Assembly (NCBI GenBank): GCA_963843315.1
Contig: CAWJJU010000002.1
Location: 166,872 to 230,871, forward strand
Length of the DNA: 64,000 bases
From: an uncultured Actinomycetes bacterium
Lineage (GTDB): Bacteria > Actinomycetota > Thermoleophilia > Solirubrobacterales > 70-9
Direction of reading: 5' to 3'
Position numbers and translations under genes: made by a program. This document shows positions 19,913 through 37,002 of the stretch, piece by piece. A model generated the notes under the pieces. The model was given only the letters and a program-made list of their open reading frames with translations, was not told the DNA's origin and did not search any database. Position 1 is the first letter of the stretch; each line of letters opens with the position of its first letter.

Positions 19913-21535
19913 CTAGTGCCGGAAGTGGCGGCGGCCGGTCATCACCATGACCCCGCCCGCCTCGTCGACGGCCGCGACCACCTCGTCGTCGCGCTTGGAG
20001 CCGCCGGGCTGGATGAAGGCCTTCGCCCCCGCGTCCATCGCCACGCGCGGGCCGTCGGCGAAGGGGTAGAACGCGTCGGAGGCGACGGCCGCGCCGTCGA
20101 GCATGGTTCTCGCCTCCTCCCCACGGGCCTCGTGGCACTTGTCGATGGCGATCTTCACCGAGTCGACCCGGCTCATCTGCCCAGCGCCGATGCCGAGCGT
20201 CGCGCCGTCGCGGGCGAGGACGATCGCGTTCGAGCGAACGTGGCGGCAGACCTTCCAGGCGAAGAGCATGTCCTCCCACTGCTGCTCGGTCGGCTGGCCC
20301 TTGCTGCCCACGGTCATGGTCTCGCGCGTCTCCTCGATCCGGTCGGGGTCCTGCGCCAGCAGGCCGCCGCGCACGCGCTTGACGTCGCGCTCGCGCGGCT
20401 CGTAGCCGCTGGGCTCGGTCTCCTCGAGGATCCGGATCGCCTCCTTGCGCTGAAGCACCGCGAGCGCGTCGGGGGCGTAGCCGGGCGCCAGCAGCACCTC
20501 GACGAAGTTCTCCGAGAGCCGCTCGCCGAGGGCGGCGTCGACCGGCCGGTTGAAGACGATCACGCCGCCGAAGGCCGACAGCGGATCGCAGGCGAGCGCC
20601 TTCTCGTAGGCCTCGGCCGCCGACTCGCCGATCGCCGCCCCGCACGGGTTGTTGTGCTTGACGATCACGCACGCAGGCTGGTCGAACTCGTCGAGCAGGC
20701 GCCTCGCCGAGTCGAGGTCGAGCACGTTGTTGAACGAGAGCTCCTTGCCGTGGTGCTTGGCGACGCGGGAGAGGACGTGCTCGCGGGCGCCGACCTCCAC
20801 GTAAAGCGCCGCCCCCTGGTGGGGGTTCTCGCCGTAGGAGAGCTCCATGAACTTCTCGTGGGCCATGGTCCAGTAGCTCGGGAAGTTCTCGTAGCGCATG
20901 CCGAACCAGCGGCTGATCGCCGCGTCGTAGCGCGCGGTCGCCGCGAACGCCTCGTTGGCGAGCCAGTGGCGGGTCTCCGCCGTGATCGACCCGGCGTTCT
21001 CCTCCAGCTCCGCGAGCACCGCGTCATAGCTCTCCGGCCTGACGACCACGGCCACGAAGCGATGGTTCTTGGCGGCGGCGCGGATCATCGTCGGCCCGCC
21101 GACGTCGATGTTCTCGACGGCCTCCTCCTCCGTGACGTCCTGACGAGCGACCGTCGCCTCGAAGGGATAGAGGTTCACGCACACGAGGTCGATGGGCTCG
21201 ATCCCCTCCGCGGCGAGCGTCTCGCTGTGCGCCGGGTCGTCGCGCACCGCGAGCAGCGCGGCGTGCAGGCGCGGGTGAAGCGTCTTCACGCGTCCGTCGA
21301 GGATCTCCGGCGAGCCCGTCATCTCCGCGACGTCGGTGACGTCGACGCCGCCGTCGCGAAGCGTCCCCGCAGTGCCTCCCGTGGAGACGATCTCGACCCC
21401 CAGCCCGGCCAGGCCGCGAGCGAACTCGACCACCCCGGTCTTGTCGGAGACCGAGATCAGCGCTCGGCGAATCCTGACCCCGCCGTCGGGGGACGCTGCC
21501 CCGCCGCCTTCCAGCTGCGTCGCGTGAGCGCTCAC
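19913..21535 (-). CDS. purH: Bifunctional AICAR transformylase / IMP cyclohydrolase
   Basis: Contains ..[32 protein letters not shown].. and ends ..[31 protein letters not shown]. The GTG start overlaps the purN stop. Confidence 0.95.
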
Positions 21536-22131
21536 GAGACGAGTCTATGCGCCGCGGTGGACTCGCCGCGGGCAATCGCGCGGACGGCCTCGGGCAGCAG
21601 CTCGTGCTCGACAGCGTGGATCTGCCGCTCCAGCTCCTCGCGGTCGCGACCCGCGGGCACCGGGACCTCTCGCTGCAACAGCGCGGGCCCGGTGTCGACT
21701 CCCTCGTCGACCCAATGCACCGTCACCCCGGTCACGGAAACCCCGGCCTCCAGCGCCTGCCCGACCGCGTCGAGCCCCGGGAAGTCGGGCAGGAGCGCCG
21801 GGTGGACGTTGATCACCCGGTCGCGAAACCTGGAGATGAAGGAGGCGGAGAGGATCTGCATGTAGCCGGCAAGCACGACCAGGTCGGCCGCCAGCGACTC
21901 CAGCCAGTCGGCGATGGCCGCGTCGCGCGCCTCGCGGTCAGGGAAGTCGGCGCGCGGAAAGGTCCGGGTGGGCACTCCGGCGCCGGCGGCCCGCTGCAGG
22001 GCGCGCGCGGCGGGCTTGTCGGAGCCCACGCCCACGACCTCGATGCCGTCGCGCCCGTGAACCGTGTCGAGGATCGCCTGGAGGTTGGTGCCTGACCCCG
22101 AGGCCAGGACCGCGACCCGAAACGAGCTCAC
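21532..22131 (-). CDS. purN: Phosphoribosylglycinamide formyltransferase
   Basis: Starts at the GTG at 22131: VSSFRVAVLASGSGTNLQAI..VVLAGYMQIL..INVHPALLP..GVTVHWVDEGVDTG. GTGA overlap with the recQ stop. Confidence 0.9.
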   Translation of the reverse strand: MSSFRVAVLASGSGTNLQAILDTVHGRDGIEVVGVGSDKPAARALQRAAGAGVPTRTFPRADFPDREARDAAIADWLESLAADLVVLAGYMQILSASFISRFRDRVINVHPALLPDFPGLDAVGQALEAGVSVTGVTVHWVDEGVDTGPALLQREVPVPAGRDREELERQIHAVEHELLPEAVRAIARGESTAAHRLVS

Positions 22132-23678
22132 GCCGCTTCCGCCGGCGCCAGCTTGGGGAACTTGCCTCCGGTGGAGCGCAGCCGTCCCGCCGCGATCAGG
22201 TCGTCGACCTCGGCGAGCACCTCGGCGTTGGAGTGGTGGTGGTAGTCGCCGTAGCCGGGGAGCTCGTCGTAGCCGTACCTGGCCACCACCTTCGAGCGCC
22301 CGCCGCGGAGGATCTCCACGCAGCGGGTGCGCCCGACGGCGGGCGAGGCGCTCTCCACGACCGTGAGGATGGCGTCGCGCACCGAGCCCGACTCGCTCGA
22401 GCCGGGCGCCGCGGCCCTCACCGGCGCGCCGCCGATCGCCAGCGGGCCGTCGCACACGTCGCAGCACCGCCCCTCCGCGCGCGGCGCGGTGCGGTCGCCG
22501 AAGTGGCGCAGGATCGACTCGCGGCGGCAGCGCTCGCCCTCCACGTAGCCCCACACCGATCGGTACTCGCCCCAGCGCGCACGCTTTGCGTCCTCGTCGT
22601 TGAGCTGGTTGATGAAGTAGACGTGCAGCCGCTTGTCGCGCTTGTCGTCGAGCAGCACGCAGCGGGCGGGCAGGCCGTCGCGGCCCGCCCTGCCGGCCTC
22701 CTGGTAGTAGGCCTCCAGCGACGAGGGGACCGCGACGTGCAGCACGGTGCGCACGTTTGCCTTGTCGACGCCCATGCCGAACGCGTTGGTCGCGACCACG
22801 ATGGGAGCCTCGCCGCTCATGAACAGGCGCTGCGCCTCGGCGCGAGGCTCGCGGTCCATGCCCGCGTGGTAGGCCGGCACCGGCACTCCCAGCTGCCGCC
22901 TCAACCACTGCGCGGTCTCGTCGGTCTTCTTGCGCGTGCCGGCGTAGACGATCGCGGGACGCGCCTCGGGGTCTCCCAGCAGCGCCAGTGCGGCCCGCCT
23001 GCGCGCCTCGTCGGAGCGCGCCGGGACGACGTCGTAGGACAGGTTCGGGCGCTCGAAGCCGGTGGCGATCCGCAGCGGATCGCGCAGGCCGAGCCGCCGG
23101 GCGACGTCGAGCGCGACCTGCGTGGTCGCGGTCGCAGTGGCCGCCAGCACCGAGCGTGCGCCCACTGCCCTCGCGACATCGCCCAGTCGCATGTAGTCGG
23201 GGCGGAAGTCGTGGCCCCACTGGCTGATGCAGTGCGCCTCGTCGACGACGAAGAGGCCGACATTCGCCTCCGCCAGCCGCTCGGTGAACCCCGGAACGCC
23301 GAAGCGCTCCGGCGCCACGTAGAGCATCCGGCACTCGCCGGCCAGCGCCCGCTCGAGAGAGGCCCGGTTGTCGGCGGGGTCGCGCTGGGCGTTGATCATC
23401 TCCGCCGCTCCTCCCAGGCTCTGAACCTGGTCGCTCATCAGCGCCACCAGAGGCGACACCACCACCGCCAGCCTCGAGTCCATGAGCGCCGGCAGCTGGT
23501 AGCAGAGCGACTTGCCGGCTCCCGTCGGCATCACGACGAGGACGTCGCGCCCGGCGATGGCCGCCTCGACGGCCTCGCGCTGACCCGGCCTGAAGGCCGG
23601 GTGGCCGAAGTGGGTCTTCAGCGCGGCGGCCGGGTCGGCGACTGTGGGGTCAGACCCCGAGGATGGAGGTTGCAACAT
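22128..23678 (-). CDS. recQ: RecQ-family ATP-dependent DNA helicase
   Basis: Starts at the ATG at 23678: MLQPPSSGSDPTVADPAAALKTHFGHPAFRPGQREA..VMPTGAGKSLCYQLPA..VVDEAHCISQWGHDFRPDY..YAGTRKK..ATNAFGMGVDK..YYQEAGRAGRDG, followed by zinc-binding and WH regions. Confidence 0.9.
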   Translation of the reverse strand: MLQPPSSGSDPTVADPAAALKTHFGHPAFRPGQREAVEAAIAGRDVLVVMPTGAGKSLCYQLPALMDSRLAVVVSPLVALMSDQVQSLGGAAEMINAQRDPADNRASLERALAGECRMLYVAPERFGVPGFTERLAEANVGLFVVDEAHCISQWGHDFRPDYMRLGDVARAVGARSVLAATATATTQVALDVARRLGLRDPLRIATGFERPNLSYDVVPARSDEARRRAALALLGDPEARPAIVYAGTRKKTDETAQWLRRQLGVPVPAYHAGMDREPRAEAQRLFMSGEAPIVVATNAFGMGVDKANVRTVLHVAVPSSLEAYYQEAGRAGRDGLPARCVLLDDKRDKRLHVYFINQLNDEDAKRARWGEYRSVWGYVEGERCRRESILRHFGDRTAPRAEGRCCDVCDGPLAIGGAPVRAAAPGSSESGSVRDAILTVVESASPAVGRTRCVEILRGGRSKVVARYGYDELPGYGDYHHHSNAEVLAEVDDLIAAGRLRSTGGKFPKLAPAEAA

Positions 23679-23707: not shown

Positions 23708-23734
23708 GGTGGCGATTGCTCGAACGCCATCTAT

Positions 23735-25175
23735 CTAAGAGACGGGGACGGTCGCAATCTCCTCCAGGGCGAACTTCCCGTTGCCGTCGCCGCCGTCGCC
23801 CAGCGGGTACTCGCCGGTGAAGCAGGCGTCGCAGTGGGCAGCGCGCGGAGTGCCGACGGCCTCGTAGACGCCCTCGAGCGAGAGGTAGGCGAGCGAGTCC
23901 GCGCCGAGCTCGGCGGCGATCTCGTCGACCGTGCGCTCGTGGGCGATCATCTCCTCGCTCGTCGACATGTCCACCCCGTAGTGGCAGGGGAAGCGGATCG
24001 GCGGCGCGGAGATCCGCAGGTGCACCTCGGACGCGCCGGCGTCGCGGAGCATCCCGATGATCTGCTTGGTGGTGTTGCCGCGCACGATCGAGTCGTCGAC
24101 GACGACGATTCGCTTGCCGGAGACGATCTCCGGCAGCGGGTTGAACTTCATCCGCAGGCCGTGCTTTCGGAGCTCCTGGCCGGGCTGGATGAAGGTGCGC
24201 TGCACGTAGCGGTTCTTGGTGAGCCCGTCGTCCTTGGGCAGGCCGCTCCCGCGGGCGAAGCCGCTGGCCGCCGGGTTGCCCGAGTCGGGCACGGAGATCA
24301 CGAGGTCGGCGTCCGCCGGCGCCTCGCGGGCGAGGATCTCGCCCATCTTCCCGCGCACGACCTGAAGGCGCCTGTCCTCCAGCTTGGTGTCGGGACGCGA
24401 GAAGTAGATGTGCTCGAAGACGCAGTGGGCCGTGCGGGTCGACGGGACGACCTGGCGCGACTCGAGCCCGTGATCGGTGAGCGAGACGGCCTCGCCCGGG
24501 CTCACCTCCCGCACGTACTCGGCGCCGATGATGTCGAAGGCGCAGCTCTCCGAGGCGACGCACCAATGCTCGCCCAGCTTGCCGAGTGCCAGCGGCCTGA
24601 CCCCGTAGGGATCGCGGAAGGCGACCACCGCGCGCTTGGTCATGACGACCGTGGAGAAGGCGCCCTCCAGCCGGGGGACCACCTCGGCCACCGCGTTCTC
24701 GATCGGGCGGCGCCTCGCAGATGGAAAGCGCGGCGGCGATGATCTCCGAGTCGGAGGTCCCGCGGAACTGCACGCCGCGCTCGCGAAGCTCGTTGTGCAT
24801 GGCGACCGCGTTGGTGAGGTTGCCGTTGTGCGCCAGCGCGACCTCGCGGCCGTCGTCGCGCCACACGGGCTGGCTGTTCTCCCACGAGCCGCCGCCGGTG
24901 GTGGAGTAGCGGACGTGCCCGATCGCCATGTCGCCCTCGAGGGCGCGGAGCTTCTGCTCGTCGAAGACCTGGGACACGAGCCCCTTCTCGCGAAGGGTCG
25001 TGATGTGCCCGCCCTCGCAGGTCGCGATGCCCGCCGACTCCTGACCGCGGTGCTGTAGCGCGTAGAGGGCGAAGTACGCCATCCGCGCGACGTCGTGGCC
25101 GGGCGCGTATATGCCGAAGACCCCGCATTCATCGCGCGGGCCGTCGCGATCCGGAAGATCGGGAGGGTCTGGCAA
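23735..25175 (-). CDS. purF: Amidophosphoribosyltransferase, with an apparent +1 frame break near 24700-24725
   Basis: The N-terminal part (TTG at 25175: ..DECGVFGIYAPGHD..YALQHRGQESAGI..HNGNLTN..TSDSEII) is in one frame. The C-terminal part (..PIENAVAEVVPRLEGAFSTVVMT..DPYGVRPL..SVPDSGNPAA..IVVVDDSIVRGNT..C-rich tail) is in ORF 23735..25132. The length is 1441 nt, which is 3n+1. Confidence 0.85.
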
Positions 25176-25293
25176 ACGCCGCTGAATCGGAGTCAGTTGC
25201 TGCGAGCCTCGGTCGCGGGGGAAGAGCCACCACGGGCTCCAAGTGCCCGTGCCCCGCAGGGTAGCAACGGGGGTGGATCGCCCCGGTCGCCGG

Positions 25294-26052
25294 CTACCGG
25301 TCGTAGTCGCGGATCGCGCGCAGCGAGAGGCCGGTGAGGACCAGGCCCATCGCGACGATCACGCCCACGCAGGCGGCCAGGTCGGCGGGCTTCCAGCCGT
25401 CGATGATCAGCGAGCGCAGGCCGACGATCACGTAGCTCACGGGATTGAGCCGCGCGAGCGTTTCCATCACCGGGCTCAGGCGGTCGAACGGGACGAAGTT
25501 CGGCGTGAGGAAGAGCAGGGGGAAGAACAGCAGGAAGCTCGTGTTGGTCGCCTGGATGTTGCGCGTGCGCAGGGCGATCAGCACCGCGAAGCCCGCGTAG
25601 GCCACGCCGAAGGCCGCCGCCAGCCCGACCAGGACGATCGCGCCCAGAACCCCGGCCTCAACGTGGGCGCCCAGCACGATCCCGAACACCAGCACCAGCA
25701 GCGACGCGCCCAGGCCGCGCACGAAGTCGGCGCAGAGCCGCCCGTAGATGATCGCCGTGCGGTGGATCGGGGCCACGAGGAGCTTGTCGAAGTAGCCGTT
25801 CTCGATCTCGGTGACAAGCGCGAGGCCCGAGGTCGCCGTCGCCACGGCGAACATCAGCGAGACCGGAAGCTGAAACGCCACGTAGCCCTGGCCGTTCAGG
25901 AACGGCGTGGTGGACGGGAAGGTCTTCGAGACCTGCCCGATGTTCACCGCCAGGAAGAACAGCGGGATGAACAGCGTCGGGATGGTGGCCTCGGGGTAGC
26001 GGATCGTCTCGCGGATCGCGCGCGCGCCGAGGAGGCGGATCTGGCCGATCAC
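25294..26052 (-). CDS. ABC-2 type transporter permease
   Basis: Starts at the GTG at 26052 (VIGQIRLLGARAIRETIRYPEATIP..), has six hydrophobic segments, and forms a GTGA overlap with the ATPase stop. Confidence 0.8.
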   Translation of the reverse strand: MIGQIRLLGARAIRETIRYPEATIPTLFIPLFFLAVNIGQVSKTFPSTTPFLNGQGYVAFQLPVSLMFAVATATSGLALVTEIENGYFDKLLVAPIHRTAIIYGRLCADFVRGLGASLLVLVFGIVLGAHVEAGVLGAIVLVGLAAAFGVAYAGFAVLIALRTRNIQATNTSFLLFFPLLFLTPNFVPFDRLSPVMETLARLNPVSYVIVGLRSLIIDGWKPADLAACVGVIVAMGLVLTGLSLRAIRDYDR

Positions 26053-27032
26053 CGGCCCTCCACCTGGCCGTCGTCGTGGTCCTCGCCGACCTCCAGCCGG
26101 CGGCCGGTGGCCTCCAGGAAGACGTCGTCGAGCGACGGGCGGGCGACGGAGATGGCCCCGACCTCGATGCCGGCGGCGTGGAGGCGACGCACGATCTCGG
26201 CGACCGAGCCTGCGCCGTCCTCGGTGAACAGGGCGATGGAGTCCTCGCCGTCGACGATCCGCTCCAGGCCCGGGAGCCCGTCGAGCGCCGACTTGGTGCG
26301 GTCGCGGTCGGCACCCTCGAGCCCCACGGAGACCACGTCGTTGCCGATCTCCGACTTCAGCTTCTCCGGCGTCCCCTCGGCGACGAGCCTGCCGTCGTCG
26401 ATGATCGCCAGGCGGCCGCACAGCGCGTCGGCCTCCTCGAGGTACTGGGTGGTGAGGAAGATCGTCCGGCCCTCGGCGTTGATGCGCTTGACCTCGTCCC
26501 AGATCGTCATGCGCGAGGACGGGTCCAGGCCGGTGGTCGGCTCGTCGAGGAACAGGATCTCTGGCTCGTGCACGAGCGAGGCCGCGAGGTCCAGGCGCCG
26601 CTTCATGCCGCCGGAGTAGCCCTTGATCCGGCGGTCGGCGGCCTCGGTGAGCTCGACCATCTCCAGCAGCTCGTTCGTGCGGGTCGTCGCGGCCTCCCCT
26701 CCGATTCCGTACAGGCCGCACTGAAGCTCCAAGAGCTCCCTGCCCGTCTGCACCGGGTCGAGGCCGATCTCCTGAAGGGCCACGCCGATCCGCCGCCGGA
26801 TCGCGCTCCCCTCGGATGCGACGTCGTGGCCGGCAACGGTCGCCGAGCCGCCGCTCGGGGGCAGCAGCGTGCAGAGCATCCGCACCGTCGTGGTCTTGCC
26901 GGCGCCGTTGGGCCCGAGAAAGCCGAAGATCTCGCCGCGCTCCACGGCCAGGTCGATGCCCCGCACGGCCTCGACCTCGTCGCCGAAGCGGCGCGCAAGG
27001 TCCTTCGTCTCGATTGCGATCGATTCGCTCAT
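26049..27032 (-). CDS. ABC transporter ATP-binding protein (DrrA-like exporter family)
   Basis: Walker A GPNGAGKTT, signature YSGGMKRRL, Walker B ILFLDEPTTGLD. Confidence 0.9.
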   Translation of the reverse strand: MSESIAIETKDLARRFGDEVEAVRGIDLAVERGEIFGFLGPNGAGKTTTVRMLCTLLPPSGGSATVAGHDVASEGSAIRRRIGVALQEIGLDPVQTGRELLELQCGLYGIGGEAATTRTNELLEMVELTEAADRRIKGYSGGMKRRLDLAASLVHEPEILFLDEPTTGLDPSSRMTIWDEVKRINAEGRTIFLTTQYLEEADALCGRLAIIDDGRLVAEGTPEKLKSEIGNDVVSVGLEGADRDRTKSALDGLPGLERIVDGEDSIALFTEDGAGSVAEIVRRLHAAGIEVGAISVARPSLDDVFLEATGRRLEVGEDHDDGQVEGR

Positions 27033-28538: not shown

Positions 28539-30655
28539 GCCACCACGACCGCCTCCATGCGCTCGCCGAGCGAGCGCCAGGCGGCCTCGGCGTCGGCCAC
28601 GGAGACGTCCAGCGACATGGCGCCCGCCCGGATCGCAATCGTCTCGCCCCCGGCGGCCCCGATCACGGCGAACTCGACACCCTCGGCGCCGGCCCGGGCG
28701 GCCAGGCGCCCGATCGCGGCGGGCTCACCGGCCAGCAGCACTCCCGCGGGCCCCTCGCCGAAGACCGCGTCCTCGCCGCCGCCGACCTCGACGCTCGCGC
28801 CCACGCGGCCGGCGATCGCCATCTCGGCGAGCGCACAGGCCAGGCCGCCGTCGCTGACGTCGTGCGCGGCGCCCACCTCACCGGCCCGCACGGCCTCGCG
28901 GACGAAGCCGAGGGCGCGGCGCGCGGCCTGGACGTCGACCTCGGGCAATCCGGCCGACAGCTCGCCGCGCTGCTTGGTCAGCTCCGACCCGGCCGCCGAG
29001 GGCGCGAAGGGGCCCGCGAGGGCGATCGCGTCGCCCTCGCGCAGGGCGGTGCCCGGAGCGCCGGCGGGATCCGGCAGCTCGCCGGCCATGCCGACCACCG
29101 GGGTGGGATAGATCGGGCCGGACTCGGTTTCGTTGTACAGGGAGACGTTGCCGCCCACCACCGGCACGCCGAGCGCTCGGCAGGCGTCGGCCAGGCCCCT
29201 CACGGACTGCGAGAGCTGCCAGGCGACGTGGGGCTTCTCGGGGTTGCCGAAGTTCAGGCAGTTGGTCAGGCCGAGCGGCTCGGCGCCGGCGCAGGCGAGG
29301 TTCGCCGCGCACTCCAGCACCGCCTCCACCGCCCCGCGGTAGGGATCGCAGGCGACGCGGCGGCCGTTGCCGTCGATTGCCAGCGCGACGCCCACCCCGG
29401 ACTCGTGGATATCGAGCACCGCCGCGTCGGCGGCCTCGGGACGGCGCAGGGTGCGCGAGCCCACGATCGAGTCGTACTGCTCGAAGGCCCAGCGCTTGCT
29501 CGCGATGTTGGGCGAGCCGAGCAGCGCCAGCAGGGTCTCCTCAGGGGAGGCGTCGGCCGCGAGGGTCGCGTCGTTGCCGTACAGCCAGCCGTCGGGCTCG
29601 GCGGGGTCGAGGTCGTACAGCGGGCACTCGTCGACCAGCGCCTTCACCGGCACCTCGCCCACCAGCTCCGAGCCGTCGAGCACGCGGATCGTCTCGCCCT
29701 CGGTGATCTGGCCGATCACCGCGGCGCTCGTCTGCCAGCGCTCGCAGACGGCGAGAACCTCGTCGACCCGCGACGGCTCGACCACCGCGAGCATCCGCTC
29801 CTGCGACTCGGACACCATCACCTCGAACGGCTCGAGGTCGGGGTTTCGAAGCGGGACCGCCGAAACGTCGATGTCGAGGCCGACCTCGCCCTTCGAGGCC
29901 ATCTCCCCCGCCGACGAGGTGAGCCCGGCCGCACCCAGGTCCTGAAGCGAGACCAGCAGGTCGCCCGCCAGCAGCTCCAGGCAGCACTCGAGCAGCTTGT
30001 GCTCCTCGAAGGGGTCGCCGATCTGCACGGTCGGACGCTTGGCGTCGCCCTCCTCCAGCTCGGCCGAGGCCAGCACCGAGGCGCCGCCGATGCCGTCGCG
30101 CCCGGTCGAGGCACCGAACAGGACCAGCGCGTTGCCGGGGCCGGCGGCCGCCGAGCGGATCATCTCGTCGGCCCTCGCCAGACCCGCGCACATGGCGTTG
30201 ACCAGGCAGTTCTGCTCGTACGGCGCCTCGAAGGCCACCTCGCCGCCCACCGTGGGGACGCCGATCGAGTTGCCGTAGTGCCCGATGCCGGCCACCACGT
30301 GGTCGAAGAGATAGCGCGAGCGCTCCGAGCTGAGCTCGCCGAAGCGCAGCGAGTCGAGCACCGCGATGGGTCGCGCGCCCACCGCGAAGACGTCGCGCAG
30401 GATCCCGCCGACGCCGGTGGCGGCGCCCTGGAAGGGCTCGACGGCGCTGGGGTGGTTGTGCGACTCGACCTTGAAGGCCAGGGCCCAGCCGCCCGGCAGG
30501 CTGACGGCCCCGGCGTTCTCGCCCGGGCCCATCACCACGCGCTCGCCCTCGGTGGGCAGCTGGCCCAGGAGCTTTCGCGAGTGCTTGTAGGCGCAGTGCT
30601 CGGACCACAGCAGCGAGAACATCGCCAGCTCGACCCCGTTGGGCTCGCGGCCCAT
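28535..30655 (-). CDS. purL: Phosphoribosylformylglycinamidine synthase II; the true start is probably upstream (near 30740) across a frame break
   Basis: Contains ..ELAMFSLLWSEHCAYKHSRK..ENAG..FKVESHNHPSAVEPFQGAATGVGG.. The homologous N-terminus (TPHRELGLTDREYELIVEH) continues upstream of the ATG at 30655 with no ATG/GTG/TTG before an in-frame TGA. An ATG at 30740 lies in another frame. Confidence 0.9.
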   Translation of the reverse strand: MGREPNGVELAMFSLLWSEHCAYKHSRKLLGQLPTEGERVVMGPGENAGAVSLPGGWALAFKVESHNHPSAVEPFQGAATGVGGILRDVFAVGARPIAVLDSLRFGELSSERSRYLFDHVVAGIGHYGNSIGVPTVGGEVAFEAPYEQNCLVNAMCAGLARADEMIRSAAAGPGNALVLFGASTGRDGIGGASVLASAELEEGDAKRPTVQIGDPFEEHKLLECCLELLAGDLLVSLQDLGAAGLTSSAGEMASKGEVGLDIDVSAVPLRNPDLEPFEVMVSESQERMLAVVEPSRVDEVLAVCERWQTSAAVIGQITEGETIRVLDGSELVGEVPVKALVDECPLYDLDPAEPDGWLYGNDATLAADASPEETLLALLGSPNIASKRWAFEQYDSIVGSRTLRRPEAADAAVLDIHESGVGVALAIDGNGRRVACDPYRGAVEAVLECAANLACAGAEPLGLTNCLNFGNPEKPHVAWQLSQSVRGLADACRALGVPVVGGNVSLYNETESGPIYPTPVVGMAGELPDPAGAPGTALREGDAIALAGPFAPSAAGSELTKQRGELSAGLPEVDVQAARRALGFVREAVRAGEVGAAHDVSDGGLACALAEMAIAGRVGASVEVGGGEDAVFGEGPAGVLLAGEPAAIGRLAARAGAEGVEFAVIGAAGGETIAIRAGAMSLDVSVADAEAAWRSLGERMEAVVVA

Positions 30656-30707: not shown

Positions 30708-30754
30708 GGGGTCAGACCCCTTGAGTCGCCTCCGACTCATGGGGTCATGACCCC
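30708..30754. repeat. Palindrome pair GGGGTCAGACCCC (30708-30720) and GGGGTCATGACCCC (30741-30754)
   Basis: Located at the GT4/purL junction. The second palindrome contains the glycosyltransferase stop codon. The spacer carries the hairpin GAGTCGcctcCGACTC. Confidence 0.85.
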
Positions 30755-31875
30755 ATGACGGGGGTCCTGGGGGGCGCGGGGCGGCGGGCGGTGGCGGTGT
30801 CGACCAGCTCGCCCATGCCGTCGACCGTGTGCGACCAGGCTCGCTCAGAGCGCACCTCGCGCGCGCCGGCGGCCAGCCGCTCGCGCTCGGCGTCGTCGGC
30901 CACGCGCTCCATCAGCTCCGTGAGGTGACCGATGTCCGGGTCCCAGGCCGGGATGCCCGACTCGGCCGTGCCGTTTTGGATCGAGCGCACCAGCAGGCCG
31001 TTTCGCTCATGCTCGATCACCTCGTTCAGCGGCGCGAAGTCGCTGGTGATCACCGGCCTGCCGAACGCCATCGCCTCGAACAGGGGCAGGCCCAGGCCCT
31101 CCCAGCGGGCCGGCGTCAGCACCACGTCGGCGCCGGCGACGGTCGCGAGGTGGTCGCTCGTCGTCTGGTCCTCCAGAAGGAACTCGATGCGCGAGTCGCT
31201 CTCGGCCGCCTCGCGGGCGAGCTTGGTGCGCTTGTTGCGCTCGACCTGCGCCTTGATCAGCAGGCGAAGGCGCGGGTTCGTCGTCTTCTGGAACGCCTCG
31301 ATCGCCGGCGCGACGGGCTTGCGGTGGCCGATGAACCCGGCGGGGAAGATGAGCTGGACGACGTCGCCGGGCGCCGTGCGCTTGGGTGTCACGTCGAGTA
31401 GCTCGGGGTTGATGCCCCACGGCACGTACGGAGTCTCGAGGCCGAAGCTCCGGTAGCGCTCCTGCTCGCAGCGGGTCATCGAGTAGACGATGTCGAAGGC
31501 GTCACGGGCGCCGGGCACGTCGGCCTCGGTGAAGTGCTCCCAGACGAACCGGCCGATGGTCACGACCCCGCGGGCGCGCAGCGAGGCGAGCTCGTCGAAC
31601 TGGTAGTTCTGGTCGCACAGGATCACCTCGATGCCGCGGCGCTCGACCCAGCTCTCGTACTCCTCCGCGGTGATGTCGTAGGCCGCCGCCTCGTCGACGT
31701 TGGGCTGGTCCCACACGTCGTCGCGCTGAAGGCGGCCCTTCATCGGCCCCCGCTCCTTCTTGGGGCGGGCGAGGATGAACGTCTCGTGGCCCAGCTCGTC
31801 CATGGCCGAGCGCAGCTGGCGGGCGACCACGGGCTGGCCGCGGTTGAACCACTTCGTGACGAGGCCGACGCGCAC
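30745..31875 (-). CDS. GT4-family (group 1) glycosyltransferase, paralogue 1
   Basis: Starts at the GTG at 31875: VRVGLVTKWFNRGQPVVARQLRSAMDELGHETFILARP.. ..ARWEGLGLPLFEAMAFGRPVITSD (EX7E region). Paralogous to 37966..39063 and 54319..55407. Confidence 0.8.
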   Translation of the reverse strand: MRVGLVTKWFNRGQPVVARQLRSAMDELGHETFILARPKKERGPMKGRLQRDDVWDQPNVDEAAAYDITAEEYESWVERRGIEVILCDQNYQFDELASLRARGVVTIGRFVWEHFTEADVPGARDAFDIVYSMTRCEQERYRSFGLETPYVPWGINPELLDVTPKRTAPGDVVQLIFPAGFIGHRKPVAPAIEAFQKTTNPRLRLLIKAQVERNKRTKLAREAAESDSRIEFLLEDQTTSDHLATVAGADVVLTPARWEGLGLPLFEAMAFGRPVITSDFAPLNEVIEHERNGLLVRSIQNGTAESGIPAWDPDIGHLTELMERVADDAERERLAAGAREVRSERAWSHTVDGMGELVDTATARRPAPPRTPVMGS

Positions 31876-32792
31876 TACGTCGCGGAGTCGACCGGCACGC
31901 CGGTCTCGTAGCCGAGGTCGGCCAGCATGTCGCCGGCGATCGCCTCGAAGGCCTGGCGATCGGCCTCCGGCATCTGGCGCTTCCAGCGGCTGATGCGGTC
32001 GGTGTCGGGCGGCTTGGTGGTCATCGCGTGGGTCGCCATCCTGCGCTCGACGGTGAGGTCCTGCGCGCGGCCCTCGGCGGGCAGCGCTCGCGCCATCTCG
32101 CCGAGGCGGTCCGCCGAGCGCTCGTGGTAGCTCAGCATCGCGTCGTCCCAGGGAAGCTCGATGAACTCGCAGACCCTGCGCAGCACCGGCTCGGTGTCGG
32201 CGATCAGGTCCTCGTAGCGGACCTCGGTGTAGTACGCGAGCTTCGGGCCCATTCGCCGCGCCTTCTCGATCTTCTTCTTCCACCGCCCGCCGACGTGGGC
32301 GGCGTCGATGTCGCGGACCGTCCGGTCGAGCACCGAGAGCGCGACGTCGCGGCCGTCGCGGATGACGTGCACGAAGCGGGCCTCGGGCAGCGCCCTCTCG
32401 ATCTTCCGCATCTGCCCCACGTAGCGAGGGGTCTTCTCACCCCAGCGGGGCTTGCCCTGACGGGCTGCGTAGGCGCGATAGAAGGAGCGCACGGCCTCCC
32501 CGGCGTCGAGACCGTCGATGGCGGCCAGCCATCCCAGGGCCTCTTCGTCGGAGAAGTCGAAGTCGTTCCACTCGCGATGAGCCTTCATGGCCGCCAGCGC
32601 CGACTGCGGCGTCGCGCCGGCGGCGTTGCAGGCGTCGATCAGGTCCGGGACGAAGTGCGTCTCCGGCGGGATCGTCAGCTCGGGGTGAGCGTCGAGCATC
32701 ATCCGCAGCAGGGTCGTCCCCGAGCGGTTCATGCCGACGACGAACGGGAACGACGTGGCGGTGGTCTCGGGTCGGCGTCTGGTCAGCGGCAA
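31875..32792 (-). CDS. PAPS-dependent sulfotransferase family protein, ST1
   Basis: 5'-PSB-like loop VVGMNRSGTTLL and 3'-PB-like VHVIRDGRDVALS. The stop overlaps the downstream GT4 start by 1 nt. Confidence 0.75.
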   Translation of the reverse strand: MPLTRRRPETTATSFPFVVGMNRSGTTLLRMMLDAHPELTIPPETHFVPDLIDACNAAGATPQSALAAMKAHREWNDFDFSDEEALGWLAAIDGLDAGEAVRSFYRAYAARQGKPRWGEKTPRYVGQMRKIERALPEARFVHVIRDGRDVALSVLDRTVRDIDAAHVGGRWKKKIEKARRMGPKLAYYTEVRYEDLIADTEPVLRRVCEFIELPWDDAMLSYHERSADRLGEMARALPAEGRAQDLTVERRMATHAMTTKPPDTDRISRWKRQMPEADRQAFEAIAGDMLADLGYETGVPVDSAT

Positions 32793-32807
32793 GCTAGGCC
32801 TCCCGCG

Positions 32808-33482
32808 TCACGCCGCGAGCTTCTGCTCGGCGGCGACGGCGGCAAAGAGTCGCAGGCCGTCGGCGGATCCCGTCCGCTCGTCGACGGCGTGCTCGGGGTG
32901 GGGCATGAGGCCCATCACGTTGCCCGCGGCGTTGGTGACCCCGGCGATGTCGGCGGTCGAGCCGTTGGGGTTGTCTCCCGGGGCGTAGCGGAAGGCGATC
33001 TGCCCGGCGGCATCGAGCTCGGCCACCGTGGCGTCGTCGGCGAACCAGCGCCCGCAGGCGTGCTTGACGGGAATCGAGAGCACGTCGCCGGCCGTGAGGC
33101 CGTCGGCGAACGGGCCCGAGGCCGAGCCCGCGATCAGGTCGACCTGGCGGCAGACGAAGCGAAGCCCGTCGTTGGGCAGCAGCGCTCCGGGCAGGAGCCC
33201 TGCCTCGCAGAGCACCTGGAAGCCATTGCAGATGCCGAGCACGGGGGCGCCGCCCGACGCCATCTCGGAGACCGCGCCCATCGCCGGAGCAAAACGCGCG
33301 ATGGCGCCGGCGCGAAGGTAGTCGCCGTAGGAGAAGCCGCCGGGAACGACGACCGCGTCGAGGTCGTCGAGGTCCGTCTCCTCGTGCCAGACGAGGCGGG
33401 CGTCGCCCACCCGCGCGCACGCCGCGACGGCGTCGCGCTCGTCGCATGAGCCGGGGAACTGAAGGACGCCGAACCGCGTCAC
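32808..33482 (-). CDS. purQ: Phosphoribosylformylglycinamidine synthase, glutamine amidotransferase subunit
   Basis: Contains ..VVVPGGFSYGDYLRAGA..VLGICNGFQVL..MGLMPHPEHA. Confidence 0.93.
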   Translation of the reverse strand: MTRFGVLQFPGSCDERDAVAACARVGDARLVWHEETDLDDLDAVVVPGGFSYGDYLRAGAIARFAPAMGAVSEMASGGAPVLGICNGFQVLCEAGLLPGALLPNDGLRFVCRQVDLIAGSASGPFADGLTAGDVLSIPVKHACGRWFADDATVAELDAAGQIAFRYAPGDNPNGSTADIAGVTNAAGNVMGLMPHPEHAVDERTGSADGLRLFAAVAAEQKLAA

Positions 33483-33715
33483 GCGGCGGCCTCGTCGACC
33501 ATCTCGATCTCGTAGTCCTCCACAAGTGGGTTGGCGAGAAGCTGCTCGCAGAGCCGGCCGAGGGCCGACTCGTCGTCGGCCTCGAGCTCGACCAGACGGC
33601 CGACGCGGACGTCGGAGATCCCCTCGAAGCCGAGCGCCGGCAGCGCCCTCTCGACGGCCTTGCCCTGGGGGTCGAGGATGCCCTCCTTCGGGCGGATGAG
33701 CACGCGCGCCTTCAC
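33479..33715 (-). CDS. purS: Phosphoribosylformylglycinamidine synthase subunit PurS
   Basis: 78 aa: MKARVLIRPKEGILDPQGKAVERAL..LANPLVEDYEIE. Overlaps the purQ start. Confidence 0.9.
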   Translation of the reverse strand: MKARVLIRPKEGILDPQGKAVERALPALGFEGISDVRVGRLVELEADDESALGRLCEQLLANPLVEDYEIEMVDEAAA

Positions 33716-33752
33716 GCTCGGAGCGTAGATGATCGCCCCGAGCGAACCGGCG

Positions 33753-35207
33753 TCAGGGGGTGGTTGCCACGAGGGTCGGAGACTCGTTGAGCACGTACTC
33801 GCTGAGGCGAACAGGCGACACCGTGACCGGACGGCGAGAGCGGTACTTATCGAGTACGAAAGGCCTGGGCGCCGGCACCCGGGCGATCTCCCGGAGCCCG
33901 TGCCGCGGAGGATTGCCCGCTGCGCCCGCGCTCAGGACGTCGACCTCGCGAAGCCCCTTGGGGACGTCGCTCTTGCCCCGCACCCGAGTGGCCCCCAGGT
34001 AGTAGACGAGGCCCTGGTTGCCGTTGGCAGGGGCGACGATCAGCCTCGGCACCTCAGAAGGCCCGATCGCGGCGGCCGCGCCTCGCCAATCGGGTCGCTG
34101 CATCTGCGGGCTGCGGTAGACCGCCAGGTCGACGGCCGCGAACATGACGACGCCCAGCAGCGCCGCGAGCAGGCCGAGGCGCCCGGCGCCCGTGGCGCCG
34201 CAACCGACCGCCATGACCAGGAGCAGCGGGACCTCCGCAGCGATCGTGTTTCGCGGATCGAGGAAATCGAGGCCGATGTATGCGAGAACGACGGGGACGA
34301 GGAGGGCTGCGGCGCCAACCGAACCGAGAGCCAGCGCCCCGAATCGCTCAACCGCAAGGGGGCTGCGCGCGGCGAACAGGATCGAGCCGATGAGCAGAAG
34401 CGCACCGCCCGCCGCGGCGAGACCCTGGACGGCATCGATCGCTCCCGTCCCGGCGAAGGCGCCGGGTTCTTCGCTCGCAACGTAGTTGAGGGCGGACTCG
34501 CCGGCGCGCGAAACGACGGAGCGGTTAGTGAATTCGTTTCTGCGTCCCGACCCCTCCTGATGAAGGGCGAAGGGGGCAAGCGCCAGGCCCACCAGGCCCA
34601 CTACGGCGACGGCGGCGAGCGTCCCGCGTGGCCGGCGCGACCTCTGCGTCAGCAGCCACACCGCCTGGGGCGCGATCGCGAACACGGCGAAGTAGTGCGA
34701 GCACAGCGCGAGCCCCGAGGCAGCGGCCCAGAGGCCGAGCGAGCGTGGAGTCGGTTCCCGGAGCGACTCGGCGAAGTAGACGAGCGCGACCGCGCTGAAG
34801 AAGACGAGAAACGCGTACGAGCGCGCCTCCTGCGAGTACCAGAGGAGGAAGGGATTGAAGGCGACGAGCGCGGCTGCGATCAGGCCTGCGCGCCTCGAGC
34901 CGAACACCACGGCGGCCCGGTACGCAACCGGGATGGTCAGGGTTCCGGCGAGCGCCGACAGCGACCGCAGTCCCACCTCTCCGGTCCCGAAGAGCTTCGA
35001 CCACAGCCAGGCCGCGAGGTAGTAGAGCGGTGGGCTGCGCTCACCGCCGCCCACCACGTGCATCGTCGCGCCGAGGTTCGCGTGCAGGACGCGGCTGGCC
35101 GTCACCGCCTCGTCGTGGTCATAGGACTGATGGCCGAGGGTGAGGAAACGAAGCAAGCCGCCCGCAACGACGATCGCTCCAAGCAGGCACCAATCCCTGC
35201 GTCCCAT
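33753..35207 (-). CDS. GT-C fold membrane glycosyltransferase (GT39/GT83, PMT/ArnT-like)
   Basis: 484 aa and polytopic. The first loop carries SYDHDEAVTA (acidic DE motif), followed by ..SPPLYYLAAWLWSKLFG..FNPFLLWYSQEARSYA. Confidence 0.7.
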   Translation of the reverse strand: MGRRDWCLLGAIVVAGGLLRFLTLGHQSYDHDEAVTASRVLHANLGATMHVVGGGERSPPLYYLAAWLWSKLFGTGEVGLRSLSALAGTLTIPVAYRAAVVFGSRRAGLIAAALVAFNPFLLWYSQEARSYAFLVFFSAVALVYFAESLREPTPRSLGLWAAASGLALCSHYFAVFAIAPQAVWLLTQRSRRPRGTLAAVAVVGLVGLALAPFALHQEGSGRRNEFTNRSVVSRAGESALNYVASEEPGAFAGTGAIDAVQGLAAAGGALLLIGSILFAARSPLAVERFGALALGSVGAAALLVPVVLAYIGLDFLDPRNTIAAEVPLLLVMAVGCGATGAGRLGLLAALLGVVMFAAVDLAVYRSPQMQRPDWRGAAAAIGPSEVPRLIVAPANGNQGLVYYLGATRVRGKSDVPKGLREVDVLSAGAAGNPPRHGLREIARVPAPRPFVLDKYRSRRPVTVSPVRLSEYVLNESPTLVATTP

Positions 35208-35257
35208 GGGCCGACTCTACGCCGCCGAAGCTATGTCGAAGCTAAGGGCTGCGCCGC

Positions 35258-36145
35258 TCAGGCGTAGCCGGCGGCCGCCATCGGCTCGGCCAGGCCGAGT
35301 TTGTCGATCAGCCCGGCCCAGGCGGGCTCGCCGGCGGCGTAGACCTGCTCCGCCGGGCGAACCTTGTCACGCGTCCATTCGCGCACCGCGGCCGGGGTCT
35401 CGCGGCCGAGCACCGCGTAGACCTGGTCGAGCGCGGCGGGAACGCTAGTGCGCAGGTCCTCGTTTCGAAGCAGCAGGTAGCGGTCGCCGAAGAGCCGGCG
35501 GCCGTCCTCGTAGGCGCTCTCGAAGGAGAGCTTCCACACCAGCAGCACCCGCTCGACGTCGGTGAGGTCCTCGGCCCCGCGGCCCTCGCGATCCAGGATC
35601 GCCTGCGAGATCGCCCGGCTCGACCACAGCTTGCGATCGGTCCGGTCGGTGAACATCGCGGCGGGCGAGGAGTACTTCTGCGCGCGCCGCCGGTTGCGGC
35701 CGAGCACGATCGAGGCGACGACAGCGCGCGGATCGCGGACCACGTGCACCAGCGCCGCGCCCGGGTCGATGTCGTGGACGTCGGCGAGCTTGCAGTACAG
35801 GCGGGTCTCCTTGATGGCGACGGCGGGCGCGAGGGTGAGCAGGTGCTTCAGCAGCTCGCGGGCGTGCTCCGGAAGGTGGTCGGTGATCTCCACAGAGGGG
35901 TCCCGGGGACCGCCCCAGTTGAACTCGTCGATCGGGATGTCCGGATAGCGCTCGCGCTGGAAGTCCTGGCGGATGGCCCGCATCTCGGCGAAGGCGTCGC
36001 CCTCGCGCGCGCCGGAGCCGCCGCCCTCGGTGACCTTCTGCTCGCGAAGCGGCTCGTAGAACGAGCGCAGCTCGGGGTCCTCGACGATCGCGTCGTGGAG
36101 GATCGTCGTCCCCGAACGACGCATCCCCTGGATGAAGAGGTTCAC
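35258..36145 (-). CDS. PAPS-dependent sulfotransferase family protein, ST3
   Basis: Starts at the GTG at 36145: VNLFIQGMRRSGTTILHD (5'-PSB), with HVVRDPRAVVASI (3'-PB). GTGA overlap with the purC stop. Confidence 0.7.
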   Translation of the reverse strand: MNLFIQGMRRSGTTILHDAIVEDPELRSFYEPLREQKVTEGGGSGAREGDAFAEMRAIRQDFQRERYPDIPIDEFNWGGPRDPSVEITDHLPEHARELLKHLLTLAPAVAIKETRLYCKLADVHDIDPGAALVHVVRDPRAVVASIVLGRNRRRAQKYSSPAAMFTDRTDRKLWSSRAISQAILDREGRGAEDLTDVERVLLVWKLSFESAYEDGRRLFGDRYLLLRNEDLRTSVPAALDQVYAVLGRETPAAVREWTRDKVRPAEQVYAAGEPAWAGLIDKLGLAEPMAAAGYA

Positions 36146-37002
36146 GAGGAGGTGAAGTCTTTGCCCGAGAGGCGCTCGTACGCCTCCACGTAGCGGGCGC
36201 GCGTGCGCTCGACGACCTCGGCCGGGAGGTTCGGCCCCGGGGGCGAGTGGTCCCAGCCCGACTCGTCGAGCCAGTCGCGCACGTACTGCTTGTCGAAGGA
36301 GGGCTGCCCGTGGCCAGGCTCGTAGGAATCGGCGGGCCAGAAGCGCGAGGAGTCGGGGGTGAACACCTCGTCGCCCAGGACGATGTCCTCGCCGGCGCCG
36401 CGGCCAAACTCGAACTTGGTGTCGGCGAGGATGATCCCGCGCCCGGCCGCGTGCTCGGCCGCCCGGTTGTACAGCTCGATCGAGGTGTCGCGAAGGCGCG
36501 TCATCAGGTCGCGGTCGCCGACGACCTCGGCCGCGCGATCGAAGTCGATGTTCTCGTCGTGCTCGCCGATCTCGGCCTTGGTGGCCGGGGTGAAGATGGG
36601 CTCCGGGAGCTTCTGCGACTCCTGGAGGCCGTCCGGCAGCTCGATGCCGCAGACCGTGCCGTCGCGCTTGTACTCCTTCCAGCCGGAGCCGGTGATGTAG
36701 CCGCGCACCACGCACTCCACGGGATGCATGTCCAGCTTGCGGACGCGCATGCCCCGGCGCGCGGCCTCGGGCGGGACCTCCTCGGAGATGAAGTGGTTGG
36801 GGCAGACGTCGCCGAGCAGGTCGAACCAGAAGATCGACATCTGCGTGAGGACCGCCCCCTTGTCGGGGATGGGGTCGGGCAGGACGACGTCGTAGGCGGA
36901 GATCCGGTCGGAGGCGACCATGATGAGGTCGTCGCCGTCCGCGTAGATCTCGCGGACCTTGCCGCTGGAGAGCAGTTCGAGGTCGGAAAGAGCCTGGGCC
37001 AT
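36142..37002 (-). CDS. purC: SAICAR synthetase
   Basis: Contains ..SGKVREIYA..MVASDRISAYD..ILADTKFEFG..DEVFTPDSSRFW. Confidence 0.93.
   Translation of the reverse strand: MAQALSDLELLSSGKVREIYADGDDLIMVASDRISAYDVVLPDPIPDKGAVLTQMSIFWFDLLGDVCPNHFISEEVPPEAARRGMRVRKLDMHPVECVVRGYITGSGWKEYKRDGTVCGIELPDGLQESQKLPEPIFTPATKAEIGEHDENIDFDRAAEVVGDRDLMTRLRDTSIELYNRAAEHAAGRGIILADTKFEFGRGAGEDIVLGDEVFTPDSSRFWPADSYEPGHGQPSFDKQYVRDWLDESGWDHSPPGPNLPAEVVERTRARYVEAYERLSGKDFTSS

Follow-up and report, generated by a model that had tools for sequence, protein, structure and literature searches.

We describe here a conserved cluster of purine biosynthesis (pur) genes whose gaps hold a clade-specific set of sulfotransferase (ST) and glycosyltransferase (GT) genes. 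It was found in a 64,000-nt stretch of DNA, hereafter the window, from an uncultured Actinomycetes bacterium of the order Solirubrobacterales (GTDB class Thermoleophilia, family 70-9; assembly GCA_963843315.1, contig CAWJJU010000002.1, positions 166,872-230,871 of the forward strand). At positions 19913-37002 of the window, 15 co-directional genes on the minus strand run from 37002 down to 19913 in the order purC/ST3/GT-C/purS/purQ/ST1/GT4/purL/hydrolase/ABC ATPase/ABC permease/purF/recQ/purN/purH (Table 1). We consider it rather probable that the pur genes are a conserved backbone in which the ST and GT genes form a passenger island, particular to one clade and expressed via pur promoters. 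Raw lists of open reading frames are crowded by spurious frames because the G+C content of the window is about 70%; the gene chain was defined by profiles of third-position GC (GC3) and by a codon-usage gene caller trained on the window, and identities were assigned with Pfam. The GC3 frames and Pfam matches uphold every gene identity, and the gene order, given for this region in the initial annotation. The pur string continues upstream of purC with purB, purE and purD on the same strand (43597-46734). The purC-purH interval contains eight non-pur genes and the purB-purC interval six, the latter encoding a heparinase II/III-like protein, a sulfatase, a CsoR-family repressor, a sulfotransferase (STup), a GT4 glycosyltransferase (GT4up) and an antisense hypothetical protein.

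The position of the ST and GT genes within the pur string is real, and stop/start overlaps connect them to pur genes. All six overlaps listed in the initial annotation are real: GTGA at purC-ST3, purS-purQ, recQ-purN and purN-purH, ATGA at purL-hydrolase and a single nucleotide at ST1-GT4. A seventh, GTGA between the ABC ATPase and permease genes, had been missed. The remaining gaps of the string measure 15 to 118 nt. These seven junctions carry the overlap types (ATGA, GTGA or TAGTG) of translationally coupled pairs, and on this basis we regard stop/start coupling of ST and GT translation to the pur genes as putative.

Related loci were sought in three ways. A PurL scan, taking one genome per species, yielded 80 loci (L001-L080) 64-79% identical to the query, nearly all labelled as Solirubrobacterales or, more broadly, as Actinomycetes/Actinomycetota; conservation in them was judged by searching all window proteins against the loci and by gene calling on the loci. 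Metagenome contigs were searched with an alignment of 12 ST1 paralogues, as a reciprocal test from the sulfotransferase side. Finally, the loci of three ST3 relatives (L160, L161 and L162) were read from independent gene calls supplied with the collection. An exact search of the contig index for the PurC of the window gave no match. The start positions of ST3 and GT4 are backed by full-length alignment to L003 and L160. Overlaps of 4 or 1 nt occur at seven of the 14 window junctions, against 23.6% of 923 co-directional pairs in the related loci (naive binomial P ~0.03); the string is compact, but its overlap density is not extraordinary for this lineage. The weight lies instead in the recurrence of the same cargo-pur overlaps across independent genomes.

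That recurrence is extensive. The purC gene overlaps ST3 by 4 nt in L160, L161 and L110 and by 1 nt in L003, and in L161 and L110 ST3 is overlapped on both sides, by purC and by purS, each time by 4 nt. An ST or GT4 gene overlaps purL by 4 nt in L003, L090, L094 and L160. The closest relative is L160 (GCA_038237625.1), with protein identities to the window of 82-93%. There the string consists of purC and ST3 with a 4-nt overlap, an antisense methyltransferase gene, an uninterrupted series of purS, purQ, ST1, GT4 and purL (overlaps of 4, 4, 1 and 4 nt in turn), an S26 peptidase gene, an intact purF, and recQ overlapping purN by 4 nt. The last overlap is present also in L067, and the 4-nt overlap of purL with the hydrolase gene is present in L003; in L160 and others the place of the hydrolase is taken by other genes. 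With cargo-pur overlaps in L003, L090, L094, L110, L160 and L161, the embedding of the ST and GT genes is conserved and not accidental, and co-expression of some of them with pur genes is likely to be an evolutionarily conserved trait.

The backbone, GYD-purD-purE-purB ... purC-purS-purQ-purL ... purF ... purN-purH, is co-directional in all 80 loci. ST3 stands between purC and purS in L003, L083, L086, L110, L121, L128, L135, L160 and L161, and arrays of one to seven ST1 paralogues precede purL across the clade. Sulfatases recur in the pur gaps of the ST-bearing clade, and homologues of the heparinase II/III-like protein are found in those of L003, L014, L113 and L160. When the search was started from ST1, pur genes were found beside sulfotransferases in nine of the 13 metagenome loci of at least 10 kb, with purD-purE-purB / csoR (antisense) / purC-ST3-purS-purQ-[3-6 ST1 and 2 GT4]-purL-purF as the recurrent order. 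At E<=1e-5, 1086 database sequences are related to ST3, and all of the best 120 share at least 58% identity with it; the source names listed for its relatives are only 'sulfotransferase [Solirubrobacterales bacterium]'. Each of the three ST3 orthologues whose loci were read (83, 66 and 59% identity; L160-L162) lies inside a pur cluster. In a neighbour-joining tree of PurL, those loci whose cargo includes ST/GT, sulfatase or heparinase-like genes group in neighbouring clades (the window + L003; L002, L008, L020, L048, L050 and L068; L012 + L014, L033, L037 and L065), the other loci on the tree lacking such cargo. L057 also bears such cargo and is missing from the tree because its purL is too short. 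Misassembly was rejected as the cause of the interleaving, since three other assemblies, whose gene calls are independent, show the same order.

Interleaving as such is ordinary in this order. Between the first and last pur genes we counted 389 non-pur genes, distributed over 67 of the 80 loci and lying for the most part in the purL-purF (180) and purB-purC (125) gaps; 235 are co-directional with the backbone and 154 antisense. The commonest families are a small GST-N-like protein with an antisense cytochrome P450 (purB-purC), a TetR regulator, a four-gene sugar ABC transporter (purL-purF) and an antisense nitronate monooxygenase (purF-purN). Even the three closest genomes do not carry the same cargo. 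The window alone has GT-C and the ABC pair, and it shares the hydrolase with L003 only. No homologue of GT-C was found in any related locus searched, its position being occupied by the antisense methyltransferase in L160 and by an unannotated antisense gene of similar size in L003; nor was a close homologue of the ABC exporter pair found in the same gap of relatives. The antisense hypothetical gene upstream of purC has no Pfam or NCBIfam match, and none stands at the same position in L003 or L160. On the other hand, recQ between purF and purN recurs in L003, L067, L070, L075, L077, L083 and L160. The ST/GT inserts are confined to neighbouring clades on the PurL tree; cargo interleaving in general is common. 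Within the literature searched, a conserved multi-sulfotransferase island in a pur operon is undescribed; the backbone and the presence of cargo in its gaps are not new.

The gene order had also been thought foreign to described pur operons. The backbone is in fact that of Bacillus subtilis, whose operon reads purEKBCSQLFMNHD (PMC8789054), with purK and purM left out and purD placed first. The two share the relative order purE-B-C-S-Q-L-F-N-H on one strand, the split purS/purQ/purL type and stop/start overlaps between neighbouring pur genes. They differ in that purK and purM are not in the window cluster, in that purD comes first rather than last, in the several internal, mostly leaderless promoter-like sites of the window, and in the contiguity of the pur genes, which in the window is broken by 14 non-pur genes between purB and purH. 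Nor does the window show a lone promoter with a purine-responsive leader: no Rfam family reached threshold, promoter-like sites number five or more, and no search was made for a PurR box. Other actinobacteria have loosely clustered pur regions, such as that of Mycobacterium tuberculosis (presumably purC ... purQ ... purL ... purF-purM), which resemble the window in keeping pur order and orientation around unrelated genes. The window cargo differs from theirs in being a functionally coherent ST/GT/sulfatase set, conserved in a clade and attached by 4-nt overlaps rather than ordinary gaps.

The distribution of promoter-like motifs suggests how such a string might be transcribed. The motif TANNNT, ending 5-9 nt before the start codon, is found at 14.5% of all called starts in all loci, compared with 0.24% of random positions, and its spacing is sharply peaked at 6-8 nt before start codons. 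Leaderless mRNAs are common in Actinobacteria, and transcription starting at the start codon would give a peak at just this distance; the sharp spacing indicates, by this reasoning, widespread leaderless transcription in the order and makes the motif usable as a promoter predictor. The signature precedes 88% of csoR, 69% of purC and 39% of purS genes, and 0-7% of purQ, purD, purE, purB, purF, purL and purN genes; for ST1 the rate is 1% (1/94) and for GT4 5% (1/22). Within the string it is seen before purC, GT-C, purS and purH only, where about 0.04 sites would be expected by chance for 15 genes. At purC, 36 of 48 relatives have TAGCATCG shortly before the ATG, and the window has the motif at 37017. 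A scan for sigma-70 promoter and terminator consensus sequences returned one promoter-like and four terminator-like sites, equal to the shuffled expectation.

A further promoter motif, that of purF, is conserved across the order: TGCTACCCT is found upstream of purF in 28 of 58 relatives, and variants of the motif together with a hairpin in 51 loci. In the window the region 25176-25267 comprises the -10-like box TTGCTACCCT, then a hairpin fixed in position and variable in sequence, then a purine-rich stretch resembling a Shine-Dalgarno sequence. The leader has no Rfam match, and RNAalifold found no structure common to 51 purF leaders, as their hairpins are too divergent in sequence to be aligned by MAFFT. 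By eye the hairpin, standing right after the -10 box, looks nearer to an mRNA 5' stem-loop than to a riboswitch. With leaderless-type -10 boxes before purC, GT-C, purS and purH and the conserved purF promoter, the 17-kb string can hardly be a single unit; the most economical reading of these motifs is that it contains at least five transcription starts.

No promoter signature precedes ST3, ST1, GT4 or the hydrolase in the window, so that they are probably transcribed from pur promoters. Moreover, the purC-ST3 (-4), purQ-ST1 (15 nt) and GT4-purL junctions (4 nt after the frame correction described below) leave no room for a promoter. We propose that an island coding for sulfotransferases dependent on 3'-phosphoadenosine 5'-phosphosulfate (PAPS), for GT4, GT2 and GT-C glycosyltransferases, a sulfatase, a heparinase-like protein and a CsoR-type repressor became embedded in the backbone gaps in the ancestor of one clade. 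The string would then be a chain of short units, mostly leaderless, and not one operon. The purC promoter would serve purC-ST3; that of GT-C would serve GT-C and end at the hairpin behind it; that of purS would drive purS-purQ-ST1-GT4-purL-hydrolase and perhaps the ABC pair; that of purF would drive purF-recQ-purN, and the purH site would add to purH expression. ST3, ST1-GT4 and the hydrolase would owe their expression to read-through from the pur genes and to stop/start coupling with them, and as passengers would in this way inherit housekeeping, growth-linked expression. In L160 the unbroken overlaps from purS to purL imply that the essential purL can be reached only by transcription through ST1 and GT4. 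The locus offers a clear case of accessory genes fixed in an essential biosynthetic operon across many species, and bears on how operons grow and how passengers come to be expressed. It also yields testable predictions, namely the five promoter positions, the leaderless starts and the CsoR operator next to purC.

Several points count against this proposal. In about half of the clade (L008, L012, L020, L048, L050, L083 and L086) an antisense gene separates the ST array from purL, so that co-transcription with purL is not universally conserved. Long co-directional retention in an essential operon could also be the mark of selection for co-expression rather than of simple passenger status. The CsoR operator in the purC promoter region of relatives (see below) hints at regulation beyond simple housekeeping, and the likeness of ST1 to protein-tyrosine sulfotransferases means that the acceptor could be a protein, not a glycan. 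Lastly, all promoter and terminator calls are motif-based.

The alternative that survives best is that the adjacency is historical and expression independent: the cargo blocks would be units of their own, the hairpins at GT-C/purS and GT4/purL would be terminators, and the overlaps would result from high-GC compaction. GT-C fits this description, having its own -10 box and a strong hairpin after it. This hairpin, which directly follows the GT-C stop, takes in the purS -10 box together with the first G of the purS GTG; it could be a GT-C terminator, or could occlude purS initiation on read-through transcripts. Other facts agree with independence: overlaps of 4 or 1 nt are in any case present at nearly a quarter of co-directional junctions in the related loci (the 23.6% given above), three of eight ST3 genes carry their own -10 signature, and the purQ-ST1 gaps of 50-95 nt in several relatives have room for promoters. 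The structure at GT4/purL is also stable (folding free energy, dG, -59 over a 115-nt region; z -4.4), and the palindromes that form it are not at that position in L003 and L160, where the purL start overlaps the GT4 stop. We nevertheless judge independent expression unlikely in view of the three window junctions with no promoter room, the near-absence of the leaderless signature at ST1 and GT4, and the unbroken chain of L160, in which purL transcription must cross both genes.

The palindromes at the purL start belong to a 13-14 bp type, GGGGTC(A/T/AT)GACCCC, present in eight copies in the window against 0.07 expected. Copies are placed upstream of clpB and, in purL, recQ and grpE, at the 5' end or within it; they are often paired, 33-49 nt apart and able to form long hairpins. 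Three are found in L003 (19378-19469) and none in the other 78 PurL loci or in L160-L162. The palindrome looks like a lineage-specific spreading mini-element or a protein-binding site. GGGGTCNGACCCC was rejected as a site for a pur regulator on two grounds: other copies lie at grpE, at clpB and at an unrelated gene, and 78 of the 80 loci, as well as L160-L162, lack it.

A selected metabolic or regulatory coupling was suggested by the fact that sulfotransferases consume PAPS, an adenine nucleotide. ST and GT expression would have to track the supply of purines, ATP or PAPS or, in a stronger form, ST3 would act on a metabolite or nucleotide of the purine pathway. This we find doubtful, although the embedding is clade-wide and the ST3 family large, 4-nt overlaps often flank ST3 on both sides (L110, L161), the series from purS to purL is wholly overlapped in L160, and the majority of ST1-family relatives found from the ST side adjoin pur genes. 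The rationale finds no counterpart in the gene content: no gene for ATP sulfurylase, adenosine 5'-phosphosulfate (APS) kinase or a CysQ-type phosphatase of 3'-phosphoadenosine 5'-phosphate (PAP) was found in the island, among the Pfam-scanned window genes (most of the called genes) or in the sampled cargo of relatives. Nor did Rfam reveal a purine-responsive RNA, that is, a riboswitch for purines, 5-aminoimidazole-4-carboxamide riboside 5'-triphosphate (ZTP) or phosphoribosyl pyrophosphate (PRPP), in scans of the whole window at the gathering score and of 19000-47500 at E<=1; the sole matches are a thiamine pyrophosphate (TPP) riboswitch and a tRNA outside the pur region and one chance-level CRISPR-repeat match. 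PAP is recycled to AMP, so that sulfation consumes no purine rings and has no net purine cost. Furthermore, P450, TetR, sugar ABC transporter and nitronate monooxygenase genes fill the same gaps in sister lineages, antisense genes part the ST arrays from purL in many members of the clade, and all members belong to one lineage, so the conservation may equal vertical inheritance. We infer that the arrangement has no purine-specific logic. It seems to us just as improbable that the sulfotransferases are true purine-operon members tied to nucleotide status, through PAPS/PAP homeostasis or a nucleotide substrate of ST3, with CsoR adding a metal or sulfur input to purC. If true, this would join sulfation to de novo purine synthesis by a regulatory link of a new kind, in an abundant uncultured soil clade. 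The notion that ST3 is a misannotated pur enzyme replacing purK or purM was rejected, because both are absent from the cluster also in relatives without ST3 and the PAPS motifs are kept.

The CsoR-family repressor accompanies the sulfotransferase cargo. It is encoded in eight of 12 loci with purC and ST genes (L083, L086, L094, L121, L134, L135, L144 and L148) and in none of 64 with purC and no ST, a comparison made with no correction for phylogeny. An ATACC-N(6-7)-GGGGTAT palindrome lies beside the csoR start in all eight related loci. In relatives this operator falls in the divergent csoR-purC gap, which is 50-89 nt in L083, L086, L121 and L135 and 305 nt in L134; in the window it faces the upstream STup-GT4up pair. 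By inspection the protein, with ...AYCIDV... and ...DHTNHC..., has the C...H-x3-C ligand pattern of Cu(I)-sensing CsoR. The neighbours of csoR are sulfatase and sulfotransferase genes in the window and P450 and purC genes in relatives, with no adjacent copper-efflux or chaperone gene; the P450 gene after csoR is Pfam-confirmed in L083 and L161 only. CsoR-family copper repressors have GC-rich pseudo-palindromic operators and copZA-type efflux neighbours. The likeness here extends to the Trns_repr_metal domain, the C/H/C ligands, the ATACC...GGGGTAT operator over its own promoter and the divergent arrangement, and the difference is the setting beside purC and sulfotransferase genes (P450 in relatives) in place of copZA-type efflux genes. 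From the position of its operator, CsoR may be only autoregulatory, or may exert metal control over purC-ST3 in relatives and ST-GT4 in the window. A metal-responsive island, in which CsoR would set the divergent promoter (STup-GT4up in the window, purC-ST3 in relatives) according to copper or a related signal, is the least probable of the readings despite the csoR co-occurrence, the canonical operators and the ligand pattern, given that the operator overlaps the csoR -10 box and its role may be confined to autoregulation of csoR (and control of the following P450 in L083 and L161), that in the window it lies upstream of the expected STup -35 region with an antisense gene between that unit and purC, that the co-occurrence is uncorrected for phylogeny and that no copper-efflux gene is adjacent.

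The 5'-phosphosulfate-binding (5'-PSB) motif RRSGTT and the 3'-phosphate-binding (3'-PB) motif VRDPRxVxxS of ST3, which fit the general patterns xxSGTT and RDPxxxxxS of PAPS-dependent sulfotransferases, are invariant in nine orthologues, and the motifs RSGTTLLR and IRDGRD..LS of ST1 in 12 paralogues; judging from this, the ST genes are functional and under purifying selection. The nearest solved relatives of ST1 are protein-tyrosine sulfotransferases (TPST in the PDB, 1e-19); next come sulfotransferase domains from two polyketide synthases, that of curacin (CurM) and a related one. STup resembles heparan sulfate 3-O-sulfotransferases (PDB 1t8u, 2e-10), and ST3 has no match among solved structures or in NCBIfam. 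Three STs, two GT4 and one GT-C are encoded in the window, and up to seven STs together with GT2 and GT4 in relatives. Our best guess at the product is a sulfated surface glycoconjugate, because STs are combined with GT4, GT2 and GT-C enzymes, a sulfatase with the C-terminal domain of N-sulfoglucosamine sulfohydrolase and a heparinase II/III-like protein. Secreted proteins with RTX repeats and FG-GAP proteins are among the cargo of relatives, making sulfated or glycosylated proteins possible targets as well. Double-length sulfotransferase genes (~610-645 aa), which may be fusions or encode tandem-domain proteins, stand just upstream of purL in L002, L008, L048, L050 and L068 (at ~7000-9900) and in L162 (10105-13910).

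The best-described bacterial precedent that we found for a sulfated-polymer locus is the synechan xss cluster of Synechocystis (PMC8205485). Both loci unite several PAPS-type sulfotransferases with glycosyltransferases, a combination rare in bacteria. The window lacks a dedicated regulator pair, and its genes are split among three gaps of a housekeeping operon rather than standing alone. The only export-type genes of the window are the DrrAB-like ABC-2 pair, unique to it; no Wzx, Wzy, polysaccharide co-polymerase (PCP) or outer membrane polysaccharide export (OPX) gene was seen among the Pfam-scanned genes. The literature found on bacterial sulfated polymers deals with cyanobacteria and a few other groups only, and a search for Solirubrobacterales with sulfotransferase found no paper; a multi-sulfotransferase/glycosyltransferase system in Solirubrobacterales was thus not found described.

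Three genes of the window are broken by single bases. Alignment to the intact purF of L003 reveals one extra base near 24704 and no other indel. The dnaK gene is split at 52916/52933 into HSP70 residues 2-415 and 431-599. The annotated purL start, ATG 30655, is the first in frame and cuts the conserved N-terminus HRELGLTD...; the ancestral ATG, at 30740, is one base out of frame (site 30734-30740), and a one-base deletion after it restores MSGGDSRGLTPHRELGLTD..., matching the PurL of relatives. With the start corrected, the GT4-purL gap is 4 nt, not 89. These frameshifts are probably assembly errors rather than pseudogenes, an error-prone assembly being suggested by single-base breaks in three essential genes within 64 kb. 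Annotators should be warned that this assembly has single-base frameshifts in essential genes.

Table 1. Features of the purine gene string and its surroundings, in window coordinates and in the order of minus-strand reading (dG, folding free energy)
Feature	Position	Strand	Evidence and remarks
purD (GAR synthetase), first backbone gene	45448..46734	-	Pfam GARS_N/A/C; GYD-purD-purE-purB kept in relatives
purE (AIR carboxylase)	44915..45352	-	Pfam AIRC 3e-53
purB (adenylosuccinate lyase)	43597..44850	-	Pfam Lyase_1 + ADSL_C
Heparinase II/III-like, purB-purC gap cargo	41944..43551	+	Pfam Hepar_II_III_C 1.5e-26
Sulfatase with SGSH_C domain, cargo	40239..41702	-	Pfam Sulfatase 6e-47, SGSH_C 4e-18
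CsoR-family metal-sensing repressor	39940..40242	+	Pfam Trns_repr_metal 2.8e-28; start ATG 39940
CsoR-type operator ATACCCCCACCCGGTAT	39914..39930	.	Overlaps csoR -10 box TATGCT 39928-39933
STup -10-like box TACGCT	10 nt before ATG	-	Conserved in L160
STup sulfotransferase (Sulfotransfer_1)	39071..39868	-	Pfam 55.1 bits (cut-off 22)
GT4up glycosyltransferase (GT4)	37966..39063	-	Pfam Glycos_transf_1; ST-GT4-purC co-directional in L003, L160
Hypothetical protein between GT4up and purC	37106..37969	+	High GC3, high coding score
purC -10 box TAGCAT	37012-37017	-	9 nt before ATG; leaderless-type
purC (SAICAR synthetase)	36142..37002	-	Pfam 2e-77
ST3 sulfotransferase (Sulfotransfer_3)	35258..36145	-	Pfam 54.7 bits (cut-off 27); GTG start
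GT-C -10 box TAGAGT	35214-35219	-	TANNNT signature
GT-C fold glycosyltransferase (PMT_2)	33753..35207	-	Pfam
Hairpin between GT-C and purS	33707-33752	-	dG -30.5 kcal/mol, z -3.8
purS -10 box TACGCT	33722-33727	-	Same spacing in L003, L083, L086, L094, L110, L121, L128, L160
purS	33479..33715	-	Pfam PurS 1e-24; GTG start
purQ	32808..33482	-	Pfam GATase_5
ST1 sulfotransferase (TPST-like)	31875..32792	-	Pfam Sulfotransfer_3 3e-36, 126.4 bits; 15 nt after purQ
GT4 glycosyltransferase	30745..31875	-	Pfam Glycos_transf_1
Two GGGGTC(A/AT)GACCCC palindromes flanking ancestral purL start	30708-30754	-	Together fold into one long hairpin
purL	28535..30655 (or to 30740)	-	Pfam AIRS/AIRS_C, linker domain truncated
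Alpha/beta hydrolase (TAP-like)	27090..28538	-	Pfam
DrrA-like ABC ATPase	26049..27032	-	Pfam, NCBIfam
ABC-2 permease (DrrB-like)	25294..26052	-	Pfam, NCBIfam
purF promoter motif TTGCTACCCT	25258-25267	-	Order-wide conservation; hairpin leader follows
purF, split by frameshift	23735..25175	-	GATase_6 and Pribosyltran in different frames
recQ-family helicase	22128..23678	-	NCBIfam recQ_fam 9e-117
purN	21532..22131	-	Pfam Formyl_trans_N 3e-55
purH -10-like box TAGACT	21542-21547	-	TANNNT signature
purH	19913..21535	-	Pfam AICARFT_IMPCHas 4e-119
GGGGTC(A/T/AT)GACCCC copies	369, 23646, 23695, 30708, 30741, 49713, 52223, 52271		

Outside the pur genes, a heat-shock block on the minus strand (47104-54198) lies directly upstream of GYD-purD and comprises dnaK, grpE, dnaJ, a gene for a MerR-family (HspR-like) regulator, a small hypothetical gene and clpB; the same neighbourhood is kept in L067, L134 and L148. 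The TPP riboswitch mentioned above (8798-8913, plus strand; 61 bits, above the gathering score) is followed 3' on the same strand (8935-11118) by genes for a DAO-family oxidase, probably thiO, and for thiS and thiG, and divergent from these is a thiE-like gene fused to a SnoaL_2 domain (7713-8771). Two further features bear no relation to the purine string: a gene for a LigD-like ATP-dependent DNA ligase with a 3'-phosphoesterase domain (13501-14949, minus strand), and a tRNA gene (16118-16189, plus strand) beside an amine oxidase gene.

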